From assembly GCA_017399025.1 (NCBI GenBank), contig JAFQEK010000126.1, forward strand, positions 3,197-67,196: a DNA stretch of 64,000 bases, read 5' to 3'. Position numbers and translations under genes: made by a program. This DNA is from Clostridia bacterium (lineage in GTDB: Bacteria; Bacillota; Clostridia; Oscillospirales; CAG-272). The notes beneath the pieces were generated by a model that saw only the letters and a program-made list of their open reading frames with translations, was not told the origin of the DNA and made no database searches. Within the stretch, counting starts at the first letter, position 1, and each line of letters opens with the position of its first letter. Shown piece after piece: positions 1,490 through 50,850 of the stretch.

Positions 1490-4400
1490 TTATCGGTACA
1501 TTTCTACCAATCGTTTGATTTCCGTGTTTTGCTCCTCATTCTGAATCAGCTTGCAATTTTTCACAAATAAACCGGGAACAAACTCTATTTCTCCGCAAAT
1601 CTGAAGTTTTTCCGGAGAAAACAAAATTTCTTTGATTTTTCCGTCCTCGGAATAAGAGATGAAATGCGAATCATCCGTTTTCTTCAAAATGAAAATACGG
1701 GAATCATGTGGTTTTTCTTCCAAAATCTTCTCTGCCCCCCGATAAACCAATAATTCTCCTTTGGCATTGGATAACACCATGAATGCACCGAACGTAATCA
1801 CGGAATACAAAGAGGACGGAACACCTTTCAAATAATTGTCTTTTGCAAATATGCCCGTTTCATTTTTCCCATTGACAACGGAAAACGCATTGACATAACC
1901 CTTTCGTGAAGAAACAATCAAAGTTTTCCGTCCGGAATCGCTGTCACACATTTCAGCCGCGCAATAGGGCCAATCTCCTCGCGCGCGTTCGCTTTCCTGC
2001 AAAACTGCATTGGTCAGCATAGCGCAGACTTTCAATCTGCCATTTTCTGTTTTCCATATGCCGATTTTGTTTGTCCAATGTAAACTGACAATCAGATCGC
2101 AACCGTTGTGATCTGGCATATAATAGATGCTGTTGACGGCAGTTCCGGGAATTCTCTCATGCGTGCAAAACGCAGTATTGGAATCCAGTTGTCTGATCTG
2201 ACCGTTTTCCGCCGACCACAGGAAAACCTCATTGGAAGAATTGATACTGACGAAAAGATTTTCTCCCACCGTTTCTACGTCGTCCATACAGATTCCCGTT
2301 TTGGGTGTTCTGCTCAATATCTTTCGTTTTTCGATATCCCATAGAGAAAGACTTCCGTCAATCAAAGCCGAAACCAAATATTTTCCGTTCAATTCGCAAA
2401 TGGAATACGCTCGGATGTCATTGTCAAACAAAAACCATTCGAAAGCATTGTTTTTCAGAGAAAAACGCTTAATACTGCCGTCCGTACTCGGAAGATACAA
2501 GCTTTCTCCTTTCGCAGAGTGCAGGATTTTACGAATCCAATAGGATTCGCCCTTGAAACAGTCAATAACTTCTCCCTGTTTCATATCATAAATTTTGATG
2601 GAAAAATCACGGGAAGCTGTAATGATCAACCCGTTTCTCACGATAATATCTTCAATCACATCGTCGTGCGTATACAAACATTCGTAGGTTTCCCTGTTCA
2701 GATTCCAAAGGACGACACTGTGATCCTGATAAACGGCAACGGATTTTCTGAAATTTTCGCAATAAACTGCCTTGAGCGGAATGGAATCAGGATATTCCAA
2801 TCTTTTTGTTTCTTCCGTATCTTCATCGTACAGCATCAAGGTATCCGTAACCAAAAGCCATTCGCATTCATCCGTCTCGGTATTCAGATCCATCCATTGA
2901 ATTTCACCCACATTGTCTATTTCCGTACGGAATGATCCCGTCTCCGGATTCAATTCTTTGATTTGTCCCGACTCCGTGCAAACGTATGCTTTTCCGGCAT
3001 ACGTATTGTATTTTGCCGTAATGATTTTTTCATTCAGATCCGCCAAGGAAACAATCTTGTCCAATGCAAAACCGGAACGGAAAACCTTTCCGTCTTCGGT
3101 AAACAAGAGAATCTCCTCCTGCATTTTTTCCATGCGGATGACTGCGCGATTGCAAATTTGTTTTTCGGCGACTGTTTGCAGATAATGTTCTTTTGTGATC
3201 CGAATTCGAAGCACAAAACCATCCGATGTGGAAGCATAAACGAATCCGTTTATATATTCTACGCAAACCGCCTGCTCATGTCCCGACGGCAGCGTAAATT
3301 CACAATAGCTCAAGGGAACATTCCATAATTTGATTTTTCCGTCTCTTCCGCACGAAACAAAGATGTCATTATCGATTTCCGCAATGGAAAATACCCATTG
3401 TAAATGACCTTGCGGAAGGAAACGCAAATAATCAATACGGCAATTTTCAATCCGTGTATTAACGGTTTTGTTTCCGCGGTTCTGAGAAAGAAGGATCCCG
3501 TTCAGACCGTATCCCGACAAGTCAAGATTGCGGTAACGGTAGCCGTAAAGTCCTCCGTGAACTTTCAGCATGAGATCGAACAAATTTCGCACTGCAAGAT
3601 AATAACCCGGTACTTGACGATCCACAAAGCTGACCGCCGTAATGATTTCATGAATATGTTTGCCAGAATCCGTCTGCGCTTCGCCGTTTCCGTCATGCAA
3701 AATCTCTTCTCCGTAGAGCTGGCAGAAATAAACGGCGATCGTATTCGGCATGATTCTGTAAAAAAGATCCGATTTTTCCAATTGCAGATGTGTCTGATTG
3801 TAAATATGCAGCGCACTGAAAAAATCACGGAAAATCTGATGGTAAAAACTGTAACTGACACCGCGCCGTTCTCCGCCACGCATATTATTTTTGACAATGA
3901 CCGCAAGATCCTTTACAATATGGCTTTCAATCTGGCTAACGGGAATATTTTTTGTCAGTTCCAAAATTTCATCGTATTCATCATTGTCGATATCCAACAA
4001 CTCTTCAACGGATTCCAATCGGTCAACACGCAAAACCTCTTTCAGAAACTCCATAGCCTGTATGACAGATTTTCTAAGCTGCTCTCCATTGATATTAAAT
4101 ACGCATTGCGTTTCCATACTGTATCCGATGTACGGCAGAATCAAACGGTAGATCAGTTTTTCTTTTACATCGGAGGAACGCTTTTCCTGACACAGGCAAT
4201 ATTCCCGCAAAAGCATTCCCTCATTGGTCAGACTGCTGACTTTATCCGCATCGGAACGTTCCGTTCCGATTTGCTTATAAATGGAAAACATCATCGGATT
4301 CTGAATGATCTTCAAAAGTACGGGAGAAGCGGGGACCTGTAACCCCGCACGCAGAAGGAGATTTTTGACCGTTTCCTCCGAAAATCCGTGAACCGTCACC

Positions 4401-9118: not shown

Positions 9119-9256
9119 GGCAAAGCAAAGAGATTTCGCTGTACTTACCGAAATAAATCGGACGCTTTTTTATCTAAAGGAAAAATTTGAAATCGACACC
9201 GCGTTTTGACATAATTTTTATCAAAAGCATGTTATTCTTACATGTAAAGGATAGCA

Positions 9257-9370
9257 TTTTTTATTCTATAGGAAATTGTTCAAAACCGACCTCGCCGTTT
9301 TGCATTGCCTTGATACAGGAAAAGCTTATGCAGGAGAGCAATTTCCGGTGGGCATTGCCCGCTTTTTATT
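9257..9370 (-). repeat. ~114-nt intergenic element, copy 1. Its orientation is opposite to copies 2 and 3.
   Basis: The reverse complement aligns block by block with 28508-28621 and 50738-50850. The shared blocks are ATAAAAAGCGGGCAATGCCCACCGGA..., CTGTATCAAGGCAATGCAAAACGGCGAGG... and TTTTGAACAATTTCCTATAGAATAAAAAA. Confidence 0.75.
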
Positions 9371-9392
9371 TGCAAAACAGGGAGGATTCAAA

Positions 9393-11012: not shown

Positions 11013-11068
11013 CTTTCATTTATCCGAAAACGCATTTTCTTGCAGGTAACTAACGGATAGTTTTCAAA

Positions 11069-11112
11069 AATACGGCATATCTCAAAATAGGTATGTCGTA
11101 TTTCTGTATTTG
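11069..11112 (+). terminator. Possible intrinsic terminator after sigF.
   Basis: AATACGGCATA-12 nt-TATGTCGTATT forms an 11-bp stem with one G-U pair, followed by TCTGTATTTGTG. The stem is AU-rich, so this is a weak call. Confidence 0.35.
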
Positions 11113-11129
11113 TGTCTACAAATGCAGTG

Positions 11130-11300
11130 CTTGTCAGGAAAAATGACAAGTCATAGATGAACAAAAGAAAAGGCTCCCTTGTACAAAGGGAGCTGACGCC
11201 GAAGGCGGCTGAGAGATTATTTTTGAGTAATTTAGAACTTTACAATCCCTCCGTTACGGCAAGCCGTGCCACCTCCCTTTACACAAGGGAGGCTTTTTCT
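11130..11300 (+). repeat. Hairpin-rich intergenic element (at least four stem-loops) ending in a terminator-like hairpin.
   Basis: The stem-loops are CTTGTCA-7-TGACAAG (about 11130-11150), GCTCCCTT-GTACA-AAGGGAGC (11173-11193), GCCG-AAGG-CGGC (11198-11209) and CCTCCCTT-TACAC-AAGGGAGG (11272-11292), the last followed by CTTTTTCT. Two of the stems share the arm CTCCCTT/AAGGGAG. The 74-aa ORF 11157-11381 is just a read-through of these hairpins. Confidence 0.55.
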
Positions 11301-11385
11301 ACCTCCCGGAAGGTAAAAGGTAAGCAAAAAGAGTTTTGGTTCGTAGCCATCTTTCCATACTCCTTGCCCTGCAAGGTATAGTGTG

Positions 11386-11961
11386 TTATGCCAAATAACT
11401 TGATACAATTTGTTTTGTCAACTCGAAATTCAAGTTGGGAAGAATTTCTGACAAGATTTCTTTTCCCTCGATTACTTTTCCCTCCTCGCATAACACAACA
11501 CCGGTTAAAAGTGCGAGAGTATTCTTCATTTCTTCGGTCGGCTCTATTTTTTCTTTATAAAGCTTCATTTGTTCAATATCTTTTTGCAGAACGTAATATA
11601 TACCGATCCAACAGTACTTTAAATTTTGTTGTTGTTCAAGCTTGTTTATGTGATCCCAAAACATATCGTATTTTGATAATCCCAAATAAGATATAGCAAG
11701 CCAAACATGAAAGGCTTCCATTTCCAGCTTTGTGCGTTTAACGCGGTATAATTTGTAACTACGTGTATAATATGTGATCAACTTGTTCGCAAGAAAAATC
11801 GATTTTTCATAATCGCCAGATTGACACAGCTTTTTCATTGAATTTATTTGTTTTGTTTTAACAATAGCCGTGAGCAGCACAGTAGCAGGAAGAATAACAA
11901 CAATAAAAATCAACAATGGTGCAAGATGAACTGTTGTATTTCCTATTTCGAAAGAAAGCAT
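11386..11961 (-). CDS. Hypothetical membrane-anchored protein (one N-terminal TM, helical-repeat-like remainder).
   Basis: The ORF is 191 aa. The N-terminal hydrophobic helix is LAPLLIFIVVILPATVLLTAIV, and the rest is helix-rich and Lys/Tyr/Leu-rich. The DNA is visibly AT-richer than its neighbours. I recognise no family motif. Confidence 0.5.
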   Translation of the reverse strand: MLSFEIGNTTVHLAPLLIFIVVILPATVLLTAIVKTKQINSMKKLCQSGDYEKSIFLANKLITYYTRSYKLYRVKRTKLEMEAFHVWLAISYLGLSKYDMFWDHINKLEQQQNLKYCWIGIYYVLQKDIEQMKLYKEKIEPTEEMKNTLALLTGVVLCEEGKVIEGKEILSEILPNLNFELTKQIVSSYLA

Positions 11962-15725: not shown

Positions 15726-16973
15726 ATGAATGCAAAAAAAATCGCCGTCATCGGAGGCGGTGCCGCCGGTATGCTTGCCGCCGGTCAAGCGGCTAAACTC
15801 GGTGCTGACGTTACCCTGTTTGAACGCAATTCCCTGCTGGGCAAAAAGCTGGGTATCACCGGCAAAGGACGTTGCAATGTTACCAACAATTGCACACCGG
15901 AAGAATTTATCAAAAACATCACAGCAAACGGAAAATTTCTCTATTCCGCAATCAACCGTTTTTCTCCTGCCGACACCATGGCATTTTTTGAATCGCTCGG
16001 TGTTCCTTTGAAAACCGAACGCGGTAATCGCGTATTTCCCGTTTCGGACAACGCCGTGGATATCGTGTTGGCACTCAAAAAATTCTGCTTGCAAAACGGT
16101 GTGCGCATCGTAACCGAGCGCGTAACTGATTGGATGAGAAATGAAGACGGTACCCTTGCGGGTATTATTTCTGAAAAACAAAAACACATCGGATTCGATG
16201 CTTTTATTCTCTGTACCGGCGGTGTTTCATATCCCATCACGGGTTCAACGGGCGACGGTTACCGATTGGCGCAATCCGTGGGACACACCGTAAAGCCACC
16301 GATTCCTTCGTTGGTCGGTTTGACCTCCGACAGTGAAATCTGCGCCGCTTCCATGGGACTTGCTCTGAAAAACGTTGCCATTCAGGTAACGGATACCATG
16401 AAAAAGAAAGTCATTTACAAGGATTTCGGAGAAATGCTCTTTTGCCATTTCGGAATCAGCGGTCCCATGATTCTTTCCGCTTCGGCACATCTGCGTCCGA
16501 TGGAAAAAGACCGTTACAGCATTTCCATCGATCTGAAACCCGCTCTGGATATGCAAACCTTGGATAAACGTCTGCTTGCCGATTTTGAAAAAAATAAAAA
16601 CCGCAATTTTGCCAATGCCTTTGATGCACTTCTGCCCGCCAAACTGCGCGAACCTTTCATCAAGCTTACGAGAATTGCACCGGAGAAAAAAATCAATGCC
16701 GTAACCGCCGAAGAACGGCGCCGTGTGGCAACGCTGATCAAAGGTCTGCCGGTTTCCGTTACGGGCTTCCGTCCCATTACCGAAGCCATCGTAACAAGCG
16801 GCGGCATTGCCGTCAAGGAAATCGAACCTCAGACCATGCGTTCCAAAAAAATGCCAAATCTGTATTTTGCGGGCGAAGTCATGGATCTCGATGCCTATAC
16901 GGGAGGGTTTAATCTTCAGATCGCGTTTGCTACGGCTTACACAGCCGCCATTGCCGCCTCTTCCGATTCATAA
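15726..16973 (+). CDS. NAD(P)/FAD-dependent oxidoreductase, HI0933/YhiN (BaiN-like) family.
   Basis: The ORF is 415 aa. It carries the IAVIGGGAAGMLAA dinucleotide fold, GKKLGITGKGRCNVTN and a C-terminal FAGEVMDLDAYTGGFNLQ. Confidence 0.85.
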   Translation: MNAKKIAVIGGGAAGMLAAGQAAKLGADVTLFERNSLLGKKLGITGKGRCNVTNNCTPEEFIKNITANGKFLYSAINRFSPADTMAFFESLGVPLKTERGNRVFPVSDNAVDIVLALKKFCLQNGVRIVTERVTDWMRNEDGTLAGIISEKQKHIGFDAFILCTGGVSYPITGSTGDGYRLAQSVGHTVKPPIPSLVGLTSDSEICAASMGLALKNVAIQVTDTMKKKVIYKDFGEMLFCHFGISGPMILSASAHLRPMEKDRYSISIDLKPALDMQTLDKRLLADFEKNKNRNFANAFDALLPAKLREPFIKLTRIAPEKKINAVTAEERRRVATLIKGLPVSVTGFRPITEAIVTSGGIAVKEIEPQTMRSKKMPNLYFAGEVMDLDAYTGGFNLQIAFATAYTAAIAASSDS

Positions 16974-18311: not shown

Positions 18312-20285
18312 ATGGAAATCATCAGAGCCAAATATGCAGGCTTTTGCTTTGGTGTCAAGCGCGCCGTTGATGCCGTTTTTGACTTATCCAAAGAAAAGCC
18401 CGATGCACATATCTATACCGTAGGGGAGCTGATTCACAATCCCAATGTCAATGCCAAACTGAAAGAAAACGGCATTGATATACTCAGAGAAAACAATCCG
18501 CAAGAATTGCAAAACGCCGATCCGCAATCGGTCTTCGTTGTCCGTACCCACGGAGTCCCCTGCCACACACTGGATTCACTGCGCGCATTCGTTCAAAAAA
18601 ATCCGAAATCTGAAATTGCAGACATGACCTGCCCTTTCGTTGCTAAAATCTACAAAATCATGGAAGAAAATACCTCCGATGATACTTTTACAATTTTAAT
18701 CGGCACCGCCACACATCCCGAGGTTGTGGGCATTGCGAGCTATATCCGTGGAAAATTTCGTATTTTTTCGGATTTTTCTGAATTGGAAGAAGCCTTCAAA
18801 AGCAATTTTGCACAAGACATTGGTGCAAAATCAATCATTTTGGCTTCTCAAACAACTCATAATTTGGAAGATTATCAAAATTGTAAAAAATTTCTCAAAA
18901 AACTATATACAAACGCTTTATTTTTTGATACAATATGTAATGTTACGGAAACGCGCCAAAAGGAAATTGAGAAGCTTTCCCGCGAATGCGATGCCATGCT
19001 TATCATCGGCGGACGTGAAAGCTCCAATACAAAAAAGCTCTACGACATCAGCAGAGCAAACTGTCCCGAAACCCATTTTATCGAGACCGCACGCGATATC
19101 CCGTTTCATATTACACAGATGACCGGCAAAGTCGGCATCGCTGCCGGAGCTTCCACGCCCGGCTACATAATTGAGGAGGTACAAAACACCATGAGCGAAC
19201 AAGAAAATTTCGCACAACTGCTTGAGGAATCTTTCAAAACTTTAAATACAGGAGACACCGTTCGAGGCATCGTAACATCGGTAACCAACACCGAAGTACA
19301 CGTAGACATCGGTTCCAAGGTAACCGGCGTTCTGACCATTGAAAACGTTACCGACGATCCGCAAGCTAAACTCGAAACCCTTTTCAAGGTTGGCGACGAA
19401 GTAGAAGCTGTTGCTGTTCGCGTAAGCGACCTTGACGGCATTGCAACCCTTTCCAAAAAGAAAGTTGATGCACACAACAACTGGGCCAAAATCGTTGAAG
19501 CAAAGGAAAACGATGAAATCCTCGAAGGCAAGATCACAGAAGCTGTTAAGGGCGGCGTTATCGCATACGCACTTTCTCAGAAGATCTTCATTCCCGCATC
19601 CCAGACCAATGTTCCCAAGAACGGCGAACTGCAGAGCATTGTAGGCACAAAGCAGAGATTCAAAATCATTGAAATCAAAGAAGACAGAAGACGTGCAATC
19701 GGCTCCATCCGCGTTGTTCTCAGAGAAGAAAGAAAAGCACTTCTTGAAAACTTCTGGGCAAACATCGAAGTAGGTAAGCACTACACCGGTAAGGTTAAGA
19801 GTCTCACTTCCTACGGCGCATTCGTTGACCTCGGCGGCGTTGACGGCATGGTTCACACCACCGAACTCTCCTGGCTGCGCATTTCCTCTCCTAAGGATGT
19901 TGTTTCCATCGGTGATACTCTTGAAGTATTCGTTAAGGATTTCGACCGTGAAAAGAACAGAATCTCTCTCGGCTACAAGACCGAAGACACCAACCCTTGG
20001 AAGCTCTTCACCGATAAATACTCCATCGGCGACGTTGCGCCCGTTACCATCGTTTCCATGATGCCTTTCGGCGCATTCGCACAGATCATCCCCGGCGTTG
20101 ACGGTCTCATTCACATCACCCAGATCGCTAACAAGAGAATCGCTGCTCCTGCAGAAGTTCTTACTCTCGGTCAGGTTGTTGATGCAAAGATCATCGACAT
20201 TGACACAGAAAAGCACAAAGTAAGCCTCTCCATCCGCGCACTCATTGAAGCTGCTGCTGAAGAAGCTACCGAAGCTGCTGAATAA
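18312..20285 (+). CDS. ispH: Fused 4-hydroxy-3-methylbut-2-enyl diphosphate reductase (IspH) and ribosomal protein S1 repeats.
   Basis: The ORF is 657 aa. The N-terminal ~285 aa are LytB/IspH-like (GFCFGVKRAVD, SSNT). The C-terminal part has four S1 OB-fold repeats (for example YTGKVKSLTSYGAFVDLGGVDGMVHTTE). Confidence 0.9.
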   Translation: MEIIRAKYAGFCFGVKRAVDAVFDLSKEKPDAHIYTVGELIHNPNVNAKLKENGIDILRENNPQELQNADPQSVFVVRTHGVPCHTLDSLRAFVQKNPKSEIADMTCPFVAKIYKIMEENTSDDTFTILIGTATHPEVVGIASYIRGKFRIFSDFSELEEAFKSNFAQDIGAKSIILASQTTHNLEDYQNCKKFLKKLYTNALFFDTICNVTETRQKEIEKLSRECDAMLIIGGRESSNTKKLYDISRANCPETHFIETARDIPFHITQMTGKVGIAAGASTPGYIIEEVQNTMSEQENFAQLLEESFKTLNTGDTVRGIVTSVTNTEVHVDIGSKVTGVLTIENVTDDPQAKLETLFKVGDEVEAVAVRVSDLDGIATLSKKKVDAHNNWAKIVEAKENDEILEGKITEAVKGGVIAYALSQKIFIPASQTNVPKNGELQSIVGTKQRFKIIEIKEDRRRAIGSIRVVLREERKALLENFWANIEVGKHYTGKVKSLTSYGAFVDLGGVDGMVHTTELSWLRISSPKDVVSIGDTLEVFVKDFDREKNRISLGYKTEDTNPWKLFTDKYSIGDVAPVTIVSMMPFGAFAQIIPGVDGLIHITQIANKRIAAPAEVLTLGQVVDAKIIDIDTEKHKVSLSIRALIEAAAEEATEAAE

Positions 20286-20316: not shown

Positions 20317-20350
20317 ATCTCCTCCTGCCTTAGACAGGGGGAGATTTTCA
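20317..20350 (+). terminator. Intrinsic terminator after ispH/rpsA.
   Basis: ATCTCCTCCTG-CCTTAGA-CAGGGGGAGAT forms an 11-bp stem with one G-U pair, followed by TTTTCATTTT. Confidence 0.7.
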
Positions 20351-20450
20351 TTTTGAAATGACTTGAAAAAATTTCTCCCGCACAATGCCGGAAATCGGAC
20401 ACCGCACAGGAGAATGTATTTACGGCTATGTTGATTTTTACGATTTCGGA

Positions 20451-27032: not shown

Positions 27033-28481
27033 ATGCAATTTTCTCATATCATCAGACCCGAAGAAATTTTATTTCCGAAAATCCCTTTCGATGCCGAAAT
27101 CGGTATCCCGCAATCTGATTTCCGAAAGCTGAAACCGGGAGATATTTTCTTTTGCGAAGACGGTTTTCATGAAAGCGGTTTTTCCTATGTTGCAAATGCG
27201 CCCGAAAAAGGCGCACTTGCCGTCATTGCGCCTCCCGGCGGCGCCGAACGAATCGGTAACATCCCTATTCCCGTTTTTGAAGTGGAAAATGTTCGCAAAA
27301 GCTATGCGCTTGCATGGAGCCGTTACGAAAAGAACCCTGCAGACGGACTTCGTCTGATCGCGATTACAGGAACGAACGGAAAAACCTCCGTTTCTTCCTT
27401 TCTGCATACCCTGCTATCGGCATCGGGTATTTCTGCGGGGCTCATCGGTACCGTGGAATATACGAGCGGAGAAAGCCATTGCCCTTCTTCTTATACTACC
27501 CCGCCGCCCGACGTGCTTTATCCCATGCTGAGAGAAATGAAAAACAAAGGGATCACGACCGTTGTCATGGAAGCATCTTCTCATGCTATCGCACAGCAGC
27601 GTCTTTACGGCTTACAATTCGAAACCGCTGTTTTCACAGGACTTTCCCGTGACCATCTCGATTACCACAAAACATGGGAAGCTTATCGGGATACCAAAGC
27701 TTCCCTTTTCAAGCAAGCAAAAAACGCGCTCATTTATCACAACGATGCGCAAGCCGAATATATGGGATTTTCCGCAACGGGTAGCGTATACTATTACGGA
27801 AGAAATCCCGAAGCGGATTTTCACATCCGCCTGCCGCAATGCGACAGTGGAGGGATCCGTTATACTCTGCATTCCGAAAAAGATGTCTTACCCGTTTTTG
27901 TTCCCGTCATCGGCAATTTTCATATTGAGAACAGTGCGGCAGCTATTGCCTGCGCATATCTGGAAGGTCTTGACGGAAAGACGATTTCCCAAGCCGTCAA
28001 GCAACTGCATTCACCTACGGGAAGAATGGAAAAATTAGATCTTCCGACCGATTTTTCCGTCTATATCGATTATGCGCATTCTCCGGATGCCATGAAGATG
28101 GCGCTGACTTCTCTTCGTCCTCTTACCAAGAAATTAACTGTTCTTTTCGGAGCGGGCGGCGACCGCGACCGTGGGAAACGGCCCGAAATGGGTGCTGTCG
28201 CCGAGGAATTGGCAGACCTTGTAATTCTGACCGATGACAATCCGAGAAATGAATCACCGTGCGACATCCTTGACGATATTGAAAGAGGCATGAAAAAGAC
28301 CAATCATGTCCGTATCGAAAATCGCGAAAAAGCCATCATCCGGGCACTGAATCAAGCTGAAAAGGGCGAAATTCTTTTGCTCGCAGGCAAAGGACATGAA
28401 AATTACAGCATTGACAAAAATGGGAAACACGCTTTTTCCGAAAAAGAAATCATAAAAAAGTGGGCAACCGCCATTCGGTAA
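27033..28481 (+). CDS. murE: UDP-N-acetylmuramoyl-L-alanyl-D-glutamate--2,6-diaminopimelate ligase.
   Basis: GTNGKTS and the DDNPR motif (the meso-DAP type) are present. GGAGGA lies 4 nt before ATG 27033. The ORF-track start at 26844 would overlap the PBP gene. Confidence 0.92.
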   Translation: MQFSHIIRPEEILFPKIPFDAEIGIPQSDFRKLKPGDIFFCEDGFHESGFSYVANAPEKGALAVIAPPGGAERIGNIPIPVFEVENVRKSYALAWSRYEKNPADGLRLIAITGTNGKTSVSSFLHTLLSASGISAGLIGTVEYTSGESHCPSSYTTPPPDVLYPMLREMKNKGITTVVMEASSHAIAQQRLYGLQFETAVFTGLSRDHLDYHKTWEAYRDTKASLFKQAKNALIYHNDAQAEYMGFSATGSVYYYGRNPEADFHIRLPQCDSGGIRYTLHSEKDVLPVFVPVIGNFHIENSAAAIACAYLEGLDGKTISQAVKQLHSPTGRMEKLDLPTDFSVYIDYAHSPDAMKMALTSLRPLTKKLTVLFGAGGDRDRGKRPEMGAVAEELADLVILTDDNPRNESPCDILDDIERGMKKTNHVRIENREKAIIRALNQAEKGEILLLAGKGHENYSIDKNGKHAFSEKEIIKKWATAIR

Positions 28482-28507
28482 TGGCTCGTCTTGCTTAATT
28501 CTCCACC

Positions 28508-28621
28508 ATAAAAAAGCGACGAATCGCCGCTGATGGTTGCTTGCCTATTCAAAATTCATCTGTATTCAAGCAATGCAAAACGGCAAGGCTCATTTTGCGC
28601 AATTTCCTATAGAATAAAAAA
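28508..28621 (+). repeat. ~114-nt intergenic element, copy 2 (between murE and murF).
   Basis: It aligns with 50738-50850 and with the reverse complement of 9257-9370. The blocks are ATAAAAAAGCGACGAATCGCCGCTGATGG..., CTGTATTCAAGCAATGCAAAACGGCAAGG... and TTTTGCGCAATTTCCTATAGAATAAAAAA. Confidence 0.75.
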
Positions 28622-30057: not shown

Positions 30058-30077
30058 TCAAACGGACAATACCTATT

Positions 30078-30131
30078 AAATCATGCAAAACAGCGGGATT
30101 GAATCCCCGAAATCTTCTATAAATCAAAAAG
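30078..30131 (+). repeat. Partial (3'-half) copy of the intergenic element, upstream of mraY.
   Basis: AAATCATGCAAAACAGCGGGATTGAATCCCCGAAATCTTCTATAAATCAAAAAG aligns with the 3' half of copy 3 (CAATCATGCAAAACGGCGAGG...AATTTCCTATAGGTTAAAAAC). Confidence 0.55.
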
Positions 30132-32417: not shown

Positions 32418-32486
32418 ACCATTTACCGATTCAAAATAAATTTCCATACAATAATAAAATTCTGTTTCAGAAAGGAATCCGGCATC

Positions 32487-50570: not shown

Positions 50571-50737
50571 TTTCATAAAAAATATCGATCTTCTTCATTT
50601 TATTTTTATAAAACTATGGAAAATAAAAAAAGTTTGTGATATAATATTAAAATAAGGTTTTTTATATCATTTTGATCATTTATGTTTTATGGAAAAAATT
50701 CCATAAAGCTTATATATAAGAAAATCGGTTCGCTCCG

Positions 50738-50850
50738 ATAAAAAGCGGGCAACGCCCGCCGGATGTGCTCAGCATGTTTGCGTTTTGTATTTACATCAAT
50801 CATGCAAAACGGCGAGGCATATTCTGAGCAATTTCCTATAGGTTAAAAAC
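50738..50850 (+). repeat. ~114-nt intergenic element, copy 3 (upstream of lon).
   Basis: The blocks are ATAAAAAGCGGGCAACGCCCGCCGGATG..., TTGTATTTACATCAATCATGCAAAACGGCGAGG... and TTCTGAGCAATTTCCTATAGGTTAAAAAC. It ends 24 nt before ATG 50874. Confidence 0.75.

Follow-up and report, generated by a model that had tools for sequence, protein, structure and literature searches.

What kind of sequence occupies the spacer between murE and murF, the leader of lon and the leader of a spoIIAA-like gene in one and the same clostridial genome? The question is raised by the window analyzed here, a 64,000-nt stretch (positions 3,197 to 67,196 of contig JAFQEK010000126.1) from a Clostridia bacterium, in which a first-pass annotation had picked out an intergenic element of about 114 nt. 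It offered four readings of this element, namely a small RNA (sRNA) gene family, a shared promoter/operator module, a leader with a conserved mini-open reading frame (ORF), or a selfish repeat akin to MITEs (miniature transposable elements with inverted repeats) and REP sequences. Our analysis bears out the observation itself and, in part, its interpretation: the element is very probably a 110-132-bp non-coding, non-autonomous interspersed repeat of the bcr1/SPRITE-like kind, which has spread through a genus of uncultured herbivore-gut Clostridia. Dedicated regulation of murF, lon or spoIIAA is not its role.

The element belongs to a high-copy repeat family

The genome to which the window belongs (hereafter G000) is a 2.24-Mb metagenome-assembled genome (MAG) of 170 contigs and 84% completeness. 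A census of this genome by BLAST and iterated nhmmer recovers about 161 copies of the element in 139 arrays, together amounting to 0.75% of the genome bases. We describe them on the strand that bears the element's own terminator (the R strand), which is the reverse complement of the orientation used at first pass. The three full copies reported earlier lie at 9257-9370 (R strand plus, co-directional with the spoIIAA-like STAS-domain gene), at 28508-28621 (R strand minus, in the murE/murF spacer and antisense to murE-murF) and at 50738-50850 (R strand minus, in the lon leader). All three are recovered with nhmmer E-values of 1e-24 to 1e-29 and with scores of 78-99 bits from a covariance model, which was built partly from these same copies. 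Three is thus the correct count of full copies for the window, and only a small part of what the genome holds. To the list of lesser copies we add a degraded partial copy at 28453-28499 on the minus strand (model positions 1-46; nhmmer E 4e-3, and alignment with relatives), which had been overlooked. The half copy previously noted before mraY (30077-30129, minus strand) is weak but real: shaped by internal deletions, lacking an intact terminator hairpin and adjoining AAAAAG, it gives faint matches (nhmmer E 3e-4; covariance-model E 0.27) and corresponds to an insertion missing from three syntenic relatives. Neither nhmmer nor the covariance model detects the 3' fragment proposed at about 32436-32462, before murG.

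The arrays of G000 comprise 119 single, 19 double and one quadruple arrangement, and the units of the tandem arrays are all co-oriented, head-to-tail, with one A/T-run in common. Three subfamilies can be told apart: A, of about 111 nt; B, the murE/murF type, whose copies are 92-97% identical; and C, of about 132 nt with an extra hairpin. The copy at 28508-28621 is of the young subfamily B and shares 92-97% identity with about 15 others. More generally, 30 of 120 copies have a partner that is at least 97% identical, against a median identity of 70% over all pairs, which speaks for both old and recent bursts of proliferation.

For comparisons within the genus we used a set of 16 species genomes including G000; the window is syntenic with contigs of three of the relatives (G007, G008 and G013) at 70-86% nucleotide identity. 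BLAST finds the repeat in 10 of the 16 species and in none of 15 genomes of other genera. The covariance model places it in five of 97 genera sampled from the family, i.e. this genus and four others, with 31 or more copies in one genome among those four. Judging by MurF identity, the clade nearest to G000 seems to be among the carriers. When public genomes were scanned with an exact pattern, most of the records returned were herbivore-gut MAGs labelled Clostridia, Eubacteriales or Oscillospiraceae; the few records from unrelated phyla had a single match each, as chance alone would produce. Searched over the window, Rfam yields no match at the gathering threshold, and relaxing the cut-off to E<=10 over the element gives a best E-value of 1.1 and no family. 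The consensus has no BLAST match in plasmid and phage collections, and we found no description of this repeat family in the literature. Fourteen of the repeat hits are no more than 150 nt away from where a contig ends, and the repeat accounts for part of the fragmentation of these MAGs.

Filled and vacant sites reveal insertion into T-runs on a fixed strand

The comparison of orthologous sites provides occupied and vacant versions of the same loci. The murE/murF site is filled in G000 only and vacant in the other 15 genomes of the genus, and relatives display a hairpin and an A-run at this position. The lon leader is filled in G000 and vacant in G007, G013 and G008; here, CCGATAAAAAAACAGCG in G007 stands against CCGATAAAAAG, the element and AAAACAGCG in the window. 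Likewise, about 55-60 extra bases between murF and mraY in G000 are missing from G007, G008 and G013. By these alignments, the copies at murE/murF, murF/mraY and lon are insertions specific to this species. The converse is seen at a terminator at 20317-20355 on the plus strand (ATCTCCTCCTG...CAGGGGGAGAT followed by TTTTCATTTTG), which follows a gene ending at 20285: it is vacant in G000 and G013, and filled in G007 and G008. The two copies belong to different subfamilies and sit in R orientation directly after the T-run, which points to independent hits on one target. The spacer before murE holds a triple array in G008 and is vacant in G000, G007 and G013, with TAAAAG as the target. In the spoIIAA leader, G008 has a truncated copy at the same place as that of G000, and no vacant relative was seen; this sharing marks it as an old insertion. 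The three window copies are ordinary family members, those at murE/murF and lon being recent and that at spoIIAA old.

All filled sites have T4-6 on both sides, the empty sites have a single T/A-run, and the insertions always place the R strand on the T-run strand; further filled/empty pairs, one of them in coding sequence, agree with a T-run target. The repeat is therefore mobile, or at least recently proliferating, and inserts into T-runs on a fixed strand. These findings also support the first-pass suggestion of a MITE/REP-like selfish repeat, as do the about 161 copies in 139 arrays and the clean empty sites of the species-specific insertions.

The choice among T-runs is itself non-random. 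The flank at the R-strand start falls below the 5th percentile of the background folding energy in 39% of cases, as against 3.8% for the other flank. In a strict test, 29% of the arrays abut a perfect hairpin, compared to 6.8% of 6,586 other intergenic runs of T>=5 (odds ratio 5.5, p 9e-13). The favored T-runs are terminator tails, those of copies already in place included, and this gives rise to the head-to-tail arrays. In the low-copy genome G142 all four copies are at terminators. A second class of targets is the A-tract immediately 5' of a ribosome-binding site and, occasionally, an A-tract in coding DNA; 16 of the 58 arrays that face a gene start end no more than 40 nt from the start codon.

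Within the window, sequence comparison identifies the landing run of the spoIIAA copy as the T6 that follows a host hairpin (ATGTTATTCTT/AAGGATAGCAT; 9229-9262, plus strand). On the plus strand two G.T wobble pairs are retained in this hairpin, and its counterpart in G008 is a perfect hairpin, ATGCTATCCTT/AAGGATAGCAT. The dcw spacers of the relatives (murE/murF and penicillin-binding protein/murE; loci L113-L118, in the blocks of G007, G008 and G013) also contain small hairpins with an antisense T-run, at the exact places where the repeat is inserted in G000 or G008. These may be antisense terminators or merely palindromes.

The R strand is the folding strand

On the R strand the element begins with TTTTT-ATNCCATAGGAAATTGC followed by a spacer. 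There then comes CCTCGCC-GTTTTG, a variable apical hairpin and AAAAC/AAAGC, which form a long irregular hairpin composed of a CTCGCC/GGCGAG stem, a GTTTT/AAAAC stem and the variable apical stem. After it stand GATAGGCGAG and a hypervariable 9-mer, and the element closes with GCGGGC-GTT-GCCCGC-TTTTT(T)A, i.e. a GC-rich hairpin of 6-7 bp with T5-6 that constitutes an intrinsic-terminator motif. The first-pass annotation had taken this hairpin for a terminator on the opposite strand, and sequence-based prediction scores all three full window copies as intrinsic terminators there. Their hairpins are GGTGGGCATTGCCCGCT followed by TTTTT at 9347-9363 (plus strand), AGCGGCGATTCGTCGCT followed by TTTTTT at 28515-28531 (minus strand) and GGCGGGCGTTGCCCGCT followed by TTTTT at 50744-50760 (minus strand). 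The unpaired blocks ATAGGAAATTGC and GATAGGCGAG are strongly conserved. The element terminates on both sides in direct A/T-runs, and its 5' end, TAAAAAAGCGGGC, is no inverted copy of its 3' end, CCTATGGAATAAAAA; the family alignment has no terminal inverted repeats, and the GC hairpin is found at one end only.

We examined three helices (CTCGCC/GGCGAG; GTTTT with the apical stem; the terminator stem) in 73 copies from several species. Pairing is retained in 93% of cells, as against 87% in column shuffles (none of 500 reaches the observed value) and 40-49% with slid partners, and there are 90 cells with double changes against 24.5 in the shuffles; these values overstate the independence of the changes to the extent that the copies are related by descent. 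The same proviso applies to the G.U pairs in the stems: the R strand has 146 of them and its complement 44, a 3.3-fold difference that singles out the R strand as the folding strand, be it as RNA or as single-stranded DNA. Among 120 G000 copies the terminator stem, earlier said to change in sequence while keeping its pairing, does exactly this: pair 7-19 is CG in 75 and TA in 26, pair 10-16 is GC in 73, CG in 29 and AT in 7, and pair 11-15 is CG in 71, GC in 16 and AT in 14, with 89% Watson-Crick pairs overall. All three R-strand stems covary. An outer stem previously proposed to form between GGAAATTG and CAATTTCC fares differently: in G000 its positions are 47-71% Watson-Crick, except for one at which G.T predominates. 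Across species the 3' arm is a hypervariable segment, and the stem is not a feature of the family.

Gene context follows intergenic space rather than gene function

The genes next to the three copies in the window encode, per Pfam, two Mur ligases, Lon and a STAS-domain (SpoIIAA-like) protein. Across G000, 29 arrays lie between convergent genes, 28 between divergent and 54 between co-directional ones, and these classes follow the share of intergenic bases in each; even the convergent sites, with 26% of the arrays against 19% of the gene pairs, match their share of intergenic bases. Within operons there is no orientation bias, the co-directional arrays being R-sense in 25 cases and R-antisense in 29. 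Arrays facing gene starts make up 55% of the total; roughly one array in two comes after a gene's 3' end, in many cases directly behind its terminator. Most seeming overlaps with ORFs stem from over-extended ORF starts. One copy, at C86:3936-4046 of G000, lies in frame inside the gene of a hydrolase-like 273-aa protein, where it contributes about 36 residues without a stop that are missing from the orthologues in G007 and G003. The first-pass annotation had reasoned that random placement in both orientations, including inside genes, would favor a selfish repeat over a regulator, and random contexts in both orientations with one copy inside a gene are what we find.

A second in-frame candidate is present at C152:18564-18672 of the same genome, in the gene of an 860-aa protein, and both in-frame copies translate as KKxGNAHS...ATQTA(K/R)SVL. 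Repeat hits at C56:15224-15317 and C42:3793-3874 lie under long ORFs with spurious-looking translations, where a real gene on the opposite strand may be interrupted.

Could the host nonetheless make use of the R-strand transcript as an sRNA or as a 3'-end module? The roles conceivable for it are those of back-up terminators, insulators against read-through or antisense transcription, determinants of RNA stability or trans-acting sRNAs from 3' untranslated regions (UTRs); jointly, we hold them to be unlikely. The three covarying R-strand stems with their excess of G.U pairs are what such a module would display, as are the terminator motif at the end of each copy, the strong conservation of the unpaired blocks, and the placement of about half of the arrays behind gene 3' ends, often directly after the terminator. 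However, the element carries no promoter, and none is predicted within the three window copies. Moreover, given the random co-directional orientation and the 55% of arrays that face gene starts, half of the copies would terminate operons or be antisense. Orthologous sites also differ between sister species, one copy is in frame within a gene, Rfam offers no match, and six species of the genus live without the repeat. The sRNA reading of the first-pass annotation had the correct strand, as attested by the terminator, the covarying stems and the G.U excess. It fails in regarding the copies as independent genes, since they have no promoter, differ in their loci between sister species and show the copy number and turnover of a mobile repeat.

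The proximity of several copies to start codons had suggested a shared promoter/operator module, in which a -10-like TATAGAAT together with a site for protein binding would lie 35-45 nt upstream of murF, mraY and lon. TAGAAT or TGGAAT close to the consensus 3' end and the 16 of 58 start-facing arrays that end near a start codon are compatible with this reading, which is nevertheless very improbable. No window copy has a -35/-10 pair with acceptable spacing inside it; the murE/murF stretch is devoid of a promoter-like site, and those of spoIIAA and lon lie upstream of the copies. In 15 relatives these genes occur without the element, and roughly every second copy faces a gene's 3' end or is antisense. 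The constant distance to the ATG is instead accounted for by the preference for insertion into the A-tract just 5' of the ribosome-binding site. The proposal of a leader encoding a conserved mini-peptide, MxNFL, for translational control of the downstream gene has a negligible probability. A TTG/CTG...TAG frame is indeed readable after GGC(G/A)AGG in the three copies of the window, but in most genome copies the TAG is TGG (CCTATGGAAT; CCTATGG instead of CCTATAG) and the frame runs on, so that neither stop nor frame is conserved. There is, in addition, no conserved Shine-Dalgarno sequence, and the copies are found in all orientations and contexts. In genome annotation the element should be masked as a repeat; the labels riboswitch, sRNA and promoter (for cell-wall, lon or sporulation genes) should be avoided.

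Parallels with known repeat systems

The closest known system in kind is bcr1, a group A interspersed repeat found in the Bacillus cereus group (Okstad 2004; Klevan 2007; Kristoffersen 2011; summarized in PMC3184786 and PMC6542083). It is described as a non-coding element of 100-155 bp, with tens to more than 100 copies in one clade (PMC3184786, PMC6542083). On either side it has TTTAT, an asymmetric A/T-rich direct repeat of 5 bp, for which a 'site-specific recombination-like' route has been proposed (PMC6542083), and it has a two-hairpin cruciform fold and has been shown to be transcribed (PMC3184786, PMC6542083). The two agree in size, non-coding nature, copy number, clade restriction and positions that are not conserved between close relatives. 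They also agree in their A/T direct-repeat flanks (T5-6 here and TTTAT there, with many copies of our element beginning TTTTTAT), in stems kept through compensatory changes, and in the lack of a known transposase. In contrast to the bcr1 cruciform, our element combines one long hairpin with a terminator hairpin and T-tail, and its preference for terminator tails has no counterpart in the passages on bcr1 that we consulted. The two have no apparent sequence similarity, and the likeness is one of kind, set against the published descriptions rather than a bcr1 sequence.

SPRITE is a terminator-like Firmicute repeat of about 105 bp, with one 18-bp duplex, a long U-rich tract and about 30 copies; it has AAAA...TTTT inverted ends and shows strong enrichment at convergent gene pairs, and vacant sites were lacking in its case (PMC3049150). 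Our element shares with it the look of a terminator, A/T runs at the ends, the absence of insertion sequences with matching ends and a clustering with other repeats. It differs in having an ordinary 6-7-bp terminator stem apart from the long hairpin, ends that are direct T-runs, about 160 copies, a context proportional to intergenic length and several empty sites that define the target. In view of these differences in stem architecture, ends and convergent enrichment we do not count it as a SPRITE. It offers a well-resolved case of a T-run-seeking, terminator-carrying repeat of fixed orientation, with real empty sites of the kind not available for SPRITE.

A further parallel is offered by bacterial class C group II introns, which insert strand-specifically just after a terminator stem-loop and T-run (Robart 2007, cited in PMC7306698). 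Both recognize a target by its structure more than by its sequence and 'hide' behind terminators. The parallel ends there: the element shows neither intron RNA domains nor an Rfam intron match, and these genomes contain no reverse transcriptase of the intron type. Rickettsia palindromic elements and intragenic ERIC/RU repeats are known as in-frame copies within genes (PMC10969869, PMC2759123). The in-frame copy in the hydrolase gene, with its approximately 36 residues without a stop, resembles the Rickettsia elements. In the latter such copies are the rule, whereas here they are rare (one verified and one candidate), and there is no sequence relation between the two.

Like classical MITEs (RUP, Correia) and REP/BIME sequences, the element is small, non-coding, of high copy number, structured, intergenic and restricted in its phyletic spread. 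With 110-132 bp it stays under the 300-bp limit set for MITEs, and its roughly 161 non-coding copies show presence/absence polymorphism. It is not a classical MITE: terminal inverted repeats are missing, and we found no insertion sequence whose ends match. A REP/BIME element mobilized by a RAYT is likewise ruled out: the unit is a 110-bp composite, not a 20-40-bp palindrome with a GTAG/CGTC tag, and no RAYT tracks it. Nor is it a PATE derived from IS200/IS605, as it has a hairpin at one end only, TnpA does not track it, and there is no gene-direction bias (25 against 29), gene direction being used as a proxy for replication direction in Clostridia.

Possible routes of movement

The strand lock and the direct-repeat flanks argue for a strand-specific route. 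By analogy to bcr1, we posit that the element moves via an intermediate that is single-stranded or via a reaction at the T-run core that resembles site-specific recombination, the movement probably being catalyzed in trans by a separate enzyme. The R-strand stems would be kept because this strand must fold, for mobility and/or termination.

For this family, and perhaps for other repeats that adjoin terminators in gut Clostridia, a small but real chance attaches to a spread that needs no dedicated transposase and proceeds by a strand-specific route using the terminator structure itself. In one version, a nascent DNA strand stalled at a hairpin and T-run would jump to the starting T-run of another copy and back again at that copy's own hairpin and T-run; in another, the folded R strand would recombine in the manner of integron attC sites. 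Either version could explain the direct T-run flanks, the locked orientation and the 5.5-fold hairpin preference, as well as the tandem arrays, the absence of terminal inverted repeats and of a partner gene, and the surplus of G.U pairs that the R strand shows.

As regards enzymes that might mobilize the repeat, PF01797 (Y1 transposase) hits are found in five of the 16 genus genomes, and their presence does not track that of the repeat. The sole hit in G000 is an IS200-like gene that sits within a repeat copy (11281-11742, minus strand, in C168:11036-11850). This gene carries its own end hairpins and is inserted at the 3' end of the copy at 11036-11144. Reverse transcriptases do not track the repeat either, and those found are RT-Cas1 fusions. 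The gene in G007 (L147:1303-3207) is such a fusion of the CRISPR adaptation type; similar genes are present in G008 and, as a fragment, at C141:2985-3287 of G000, the RT-Cas1 domain call with Pfam being made on the G007 gene. There is no RVT_1 hit beyond these in any repeat-carrying genome of the genus. Target-primed reverse transcription was rejected, as the bias toward 5' truncation is weak (41 against 25 truncated copies) and no suitable reverse transcriptase is at hand. The element is equally no relic of a group IIC intron or short interspersed nuclear element (SINE)-like retroelement, with no intron RNA, no reverse transcriptases other than RT-Cas1 and only the same weak truncation bias. 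A group II intron is, moreover, far longer than the approximately 110 nt of this element. The sequence and ORF layout around the G142 copies bears no sign of a partner gene, the neighboring ORFs having been left unannotated.

Several points weigh against a mobile repeat of this kind. Neither candidate mobilizer tracks the repeat, and no autonomous version with the 5' and 3' parts split by 0.2-5 kb, nor any split copies around an ORF, were found in G000 or in 111 fetched loci. The genomes compared are all fragmented MAGs, of a kind that loses insertion sequences. Without terminal inverted repeats the standard MITE route does not apply, and at a homopolymer T-run a target-site duplication cannot be told apart from a run borne by the element. 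The covariation and G.U counts come from copies related by descent, and the conserved unpaired blocks could equally well reflect a host function. We nevertheless consider a non-autonomous repeat the best account, and its many young copies and the sister species provide material for studying how repeats without terminal inverted repeats move, a question that bcr1 raises as well.

Consequences for the host genes in the window

Depending on its orientation, a copy is predicted to add either an extra terminator or just a folded stretch to the host transcript. By this means and by coding, the repeat appears to have remodelled its surroundings, with a new C-terminus in murE, 36 residues in the hydrolase, structure in the lon leader and a predicted terminator before spoIIAA. 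At murE, the partial copy at 28453-28499 overlaps the end of the gene and encodes its last residues (...KKWATAIR* in G000, ...KKTLGIL* in G007); by this comparison murE has gained an element-derived C-terminus. The terminator of the adjacent full copy points against the dcw operon, and sense transcription is probably not stopped by it.

In the lon leader, the copy is placed between a promoter-like site at 50617-50645 (TGGAAA-17-TATAAT with TG) and the ribosome-binding site, and would therefore be transcribed as its non-terminating complement within the 5' UTR. Upstream of lon the promoter-like site is followed by an 11-bp palindrome, GTTTTATGGAAAAAATTCCATAAAGC (both within 50617-50709), which is outside the repeat and could be an operator.

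The leader of the spoIIAA-like gene (9187-9385) has a promoter-like site at 9187-9215. Between this site and the ribosome-binding site lie two hairpins that resemble terminators and have T-runs, the host hairpin at 9229-9257 and the one at 9347-9363. Two successive hairpins of this type are an odd arrangement for a sporulation operon. The second is that of the repeat, about 15-20 nt ahead of the ribosome-binding site; lying past the promoter-like site and the host hairpin, it could attenuate the operon. In the counterpart of this copy in G008 the terminator of the repeat is deleted.

Associated repeats

Two further small repeat families, of about 140 nt and 83 nt with roughly 8-10 copies each, are found beside copies of the element. 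At C141:15544-15684 and 15778-15860 of G000 they flank it, forming composite repeat clusters, and further matches to them occur on C66, C36, C135, C78, C49, C94, C22, C143, C62 and other contigs.

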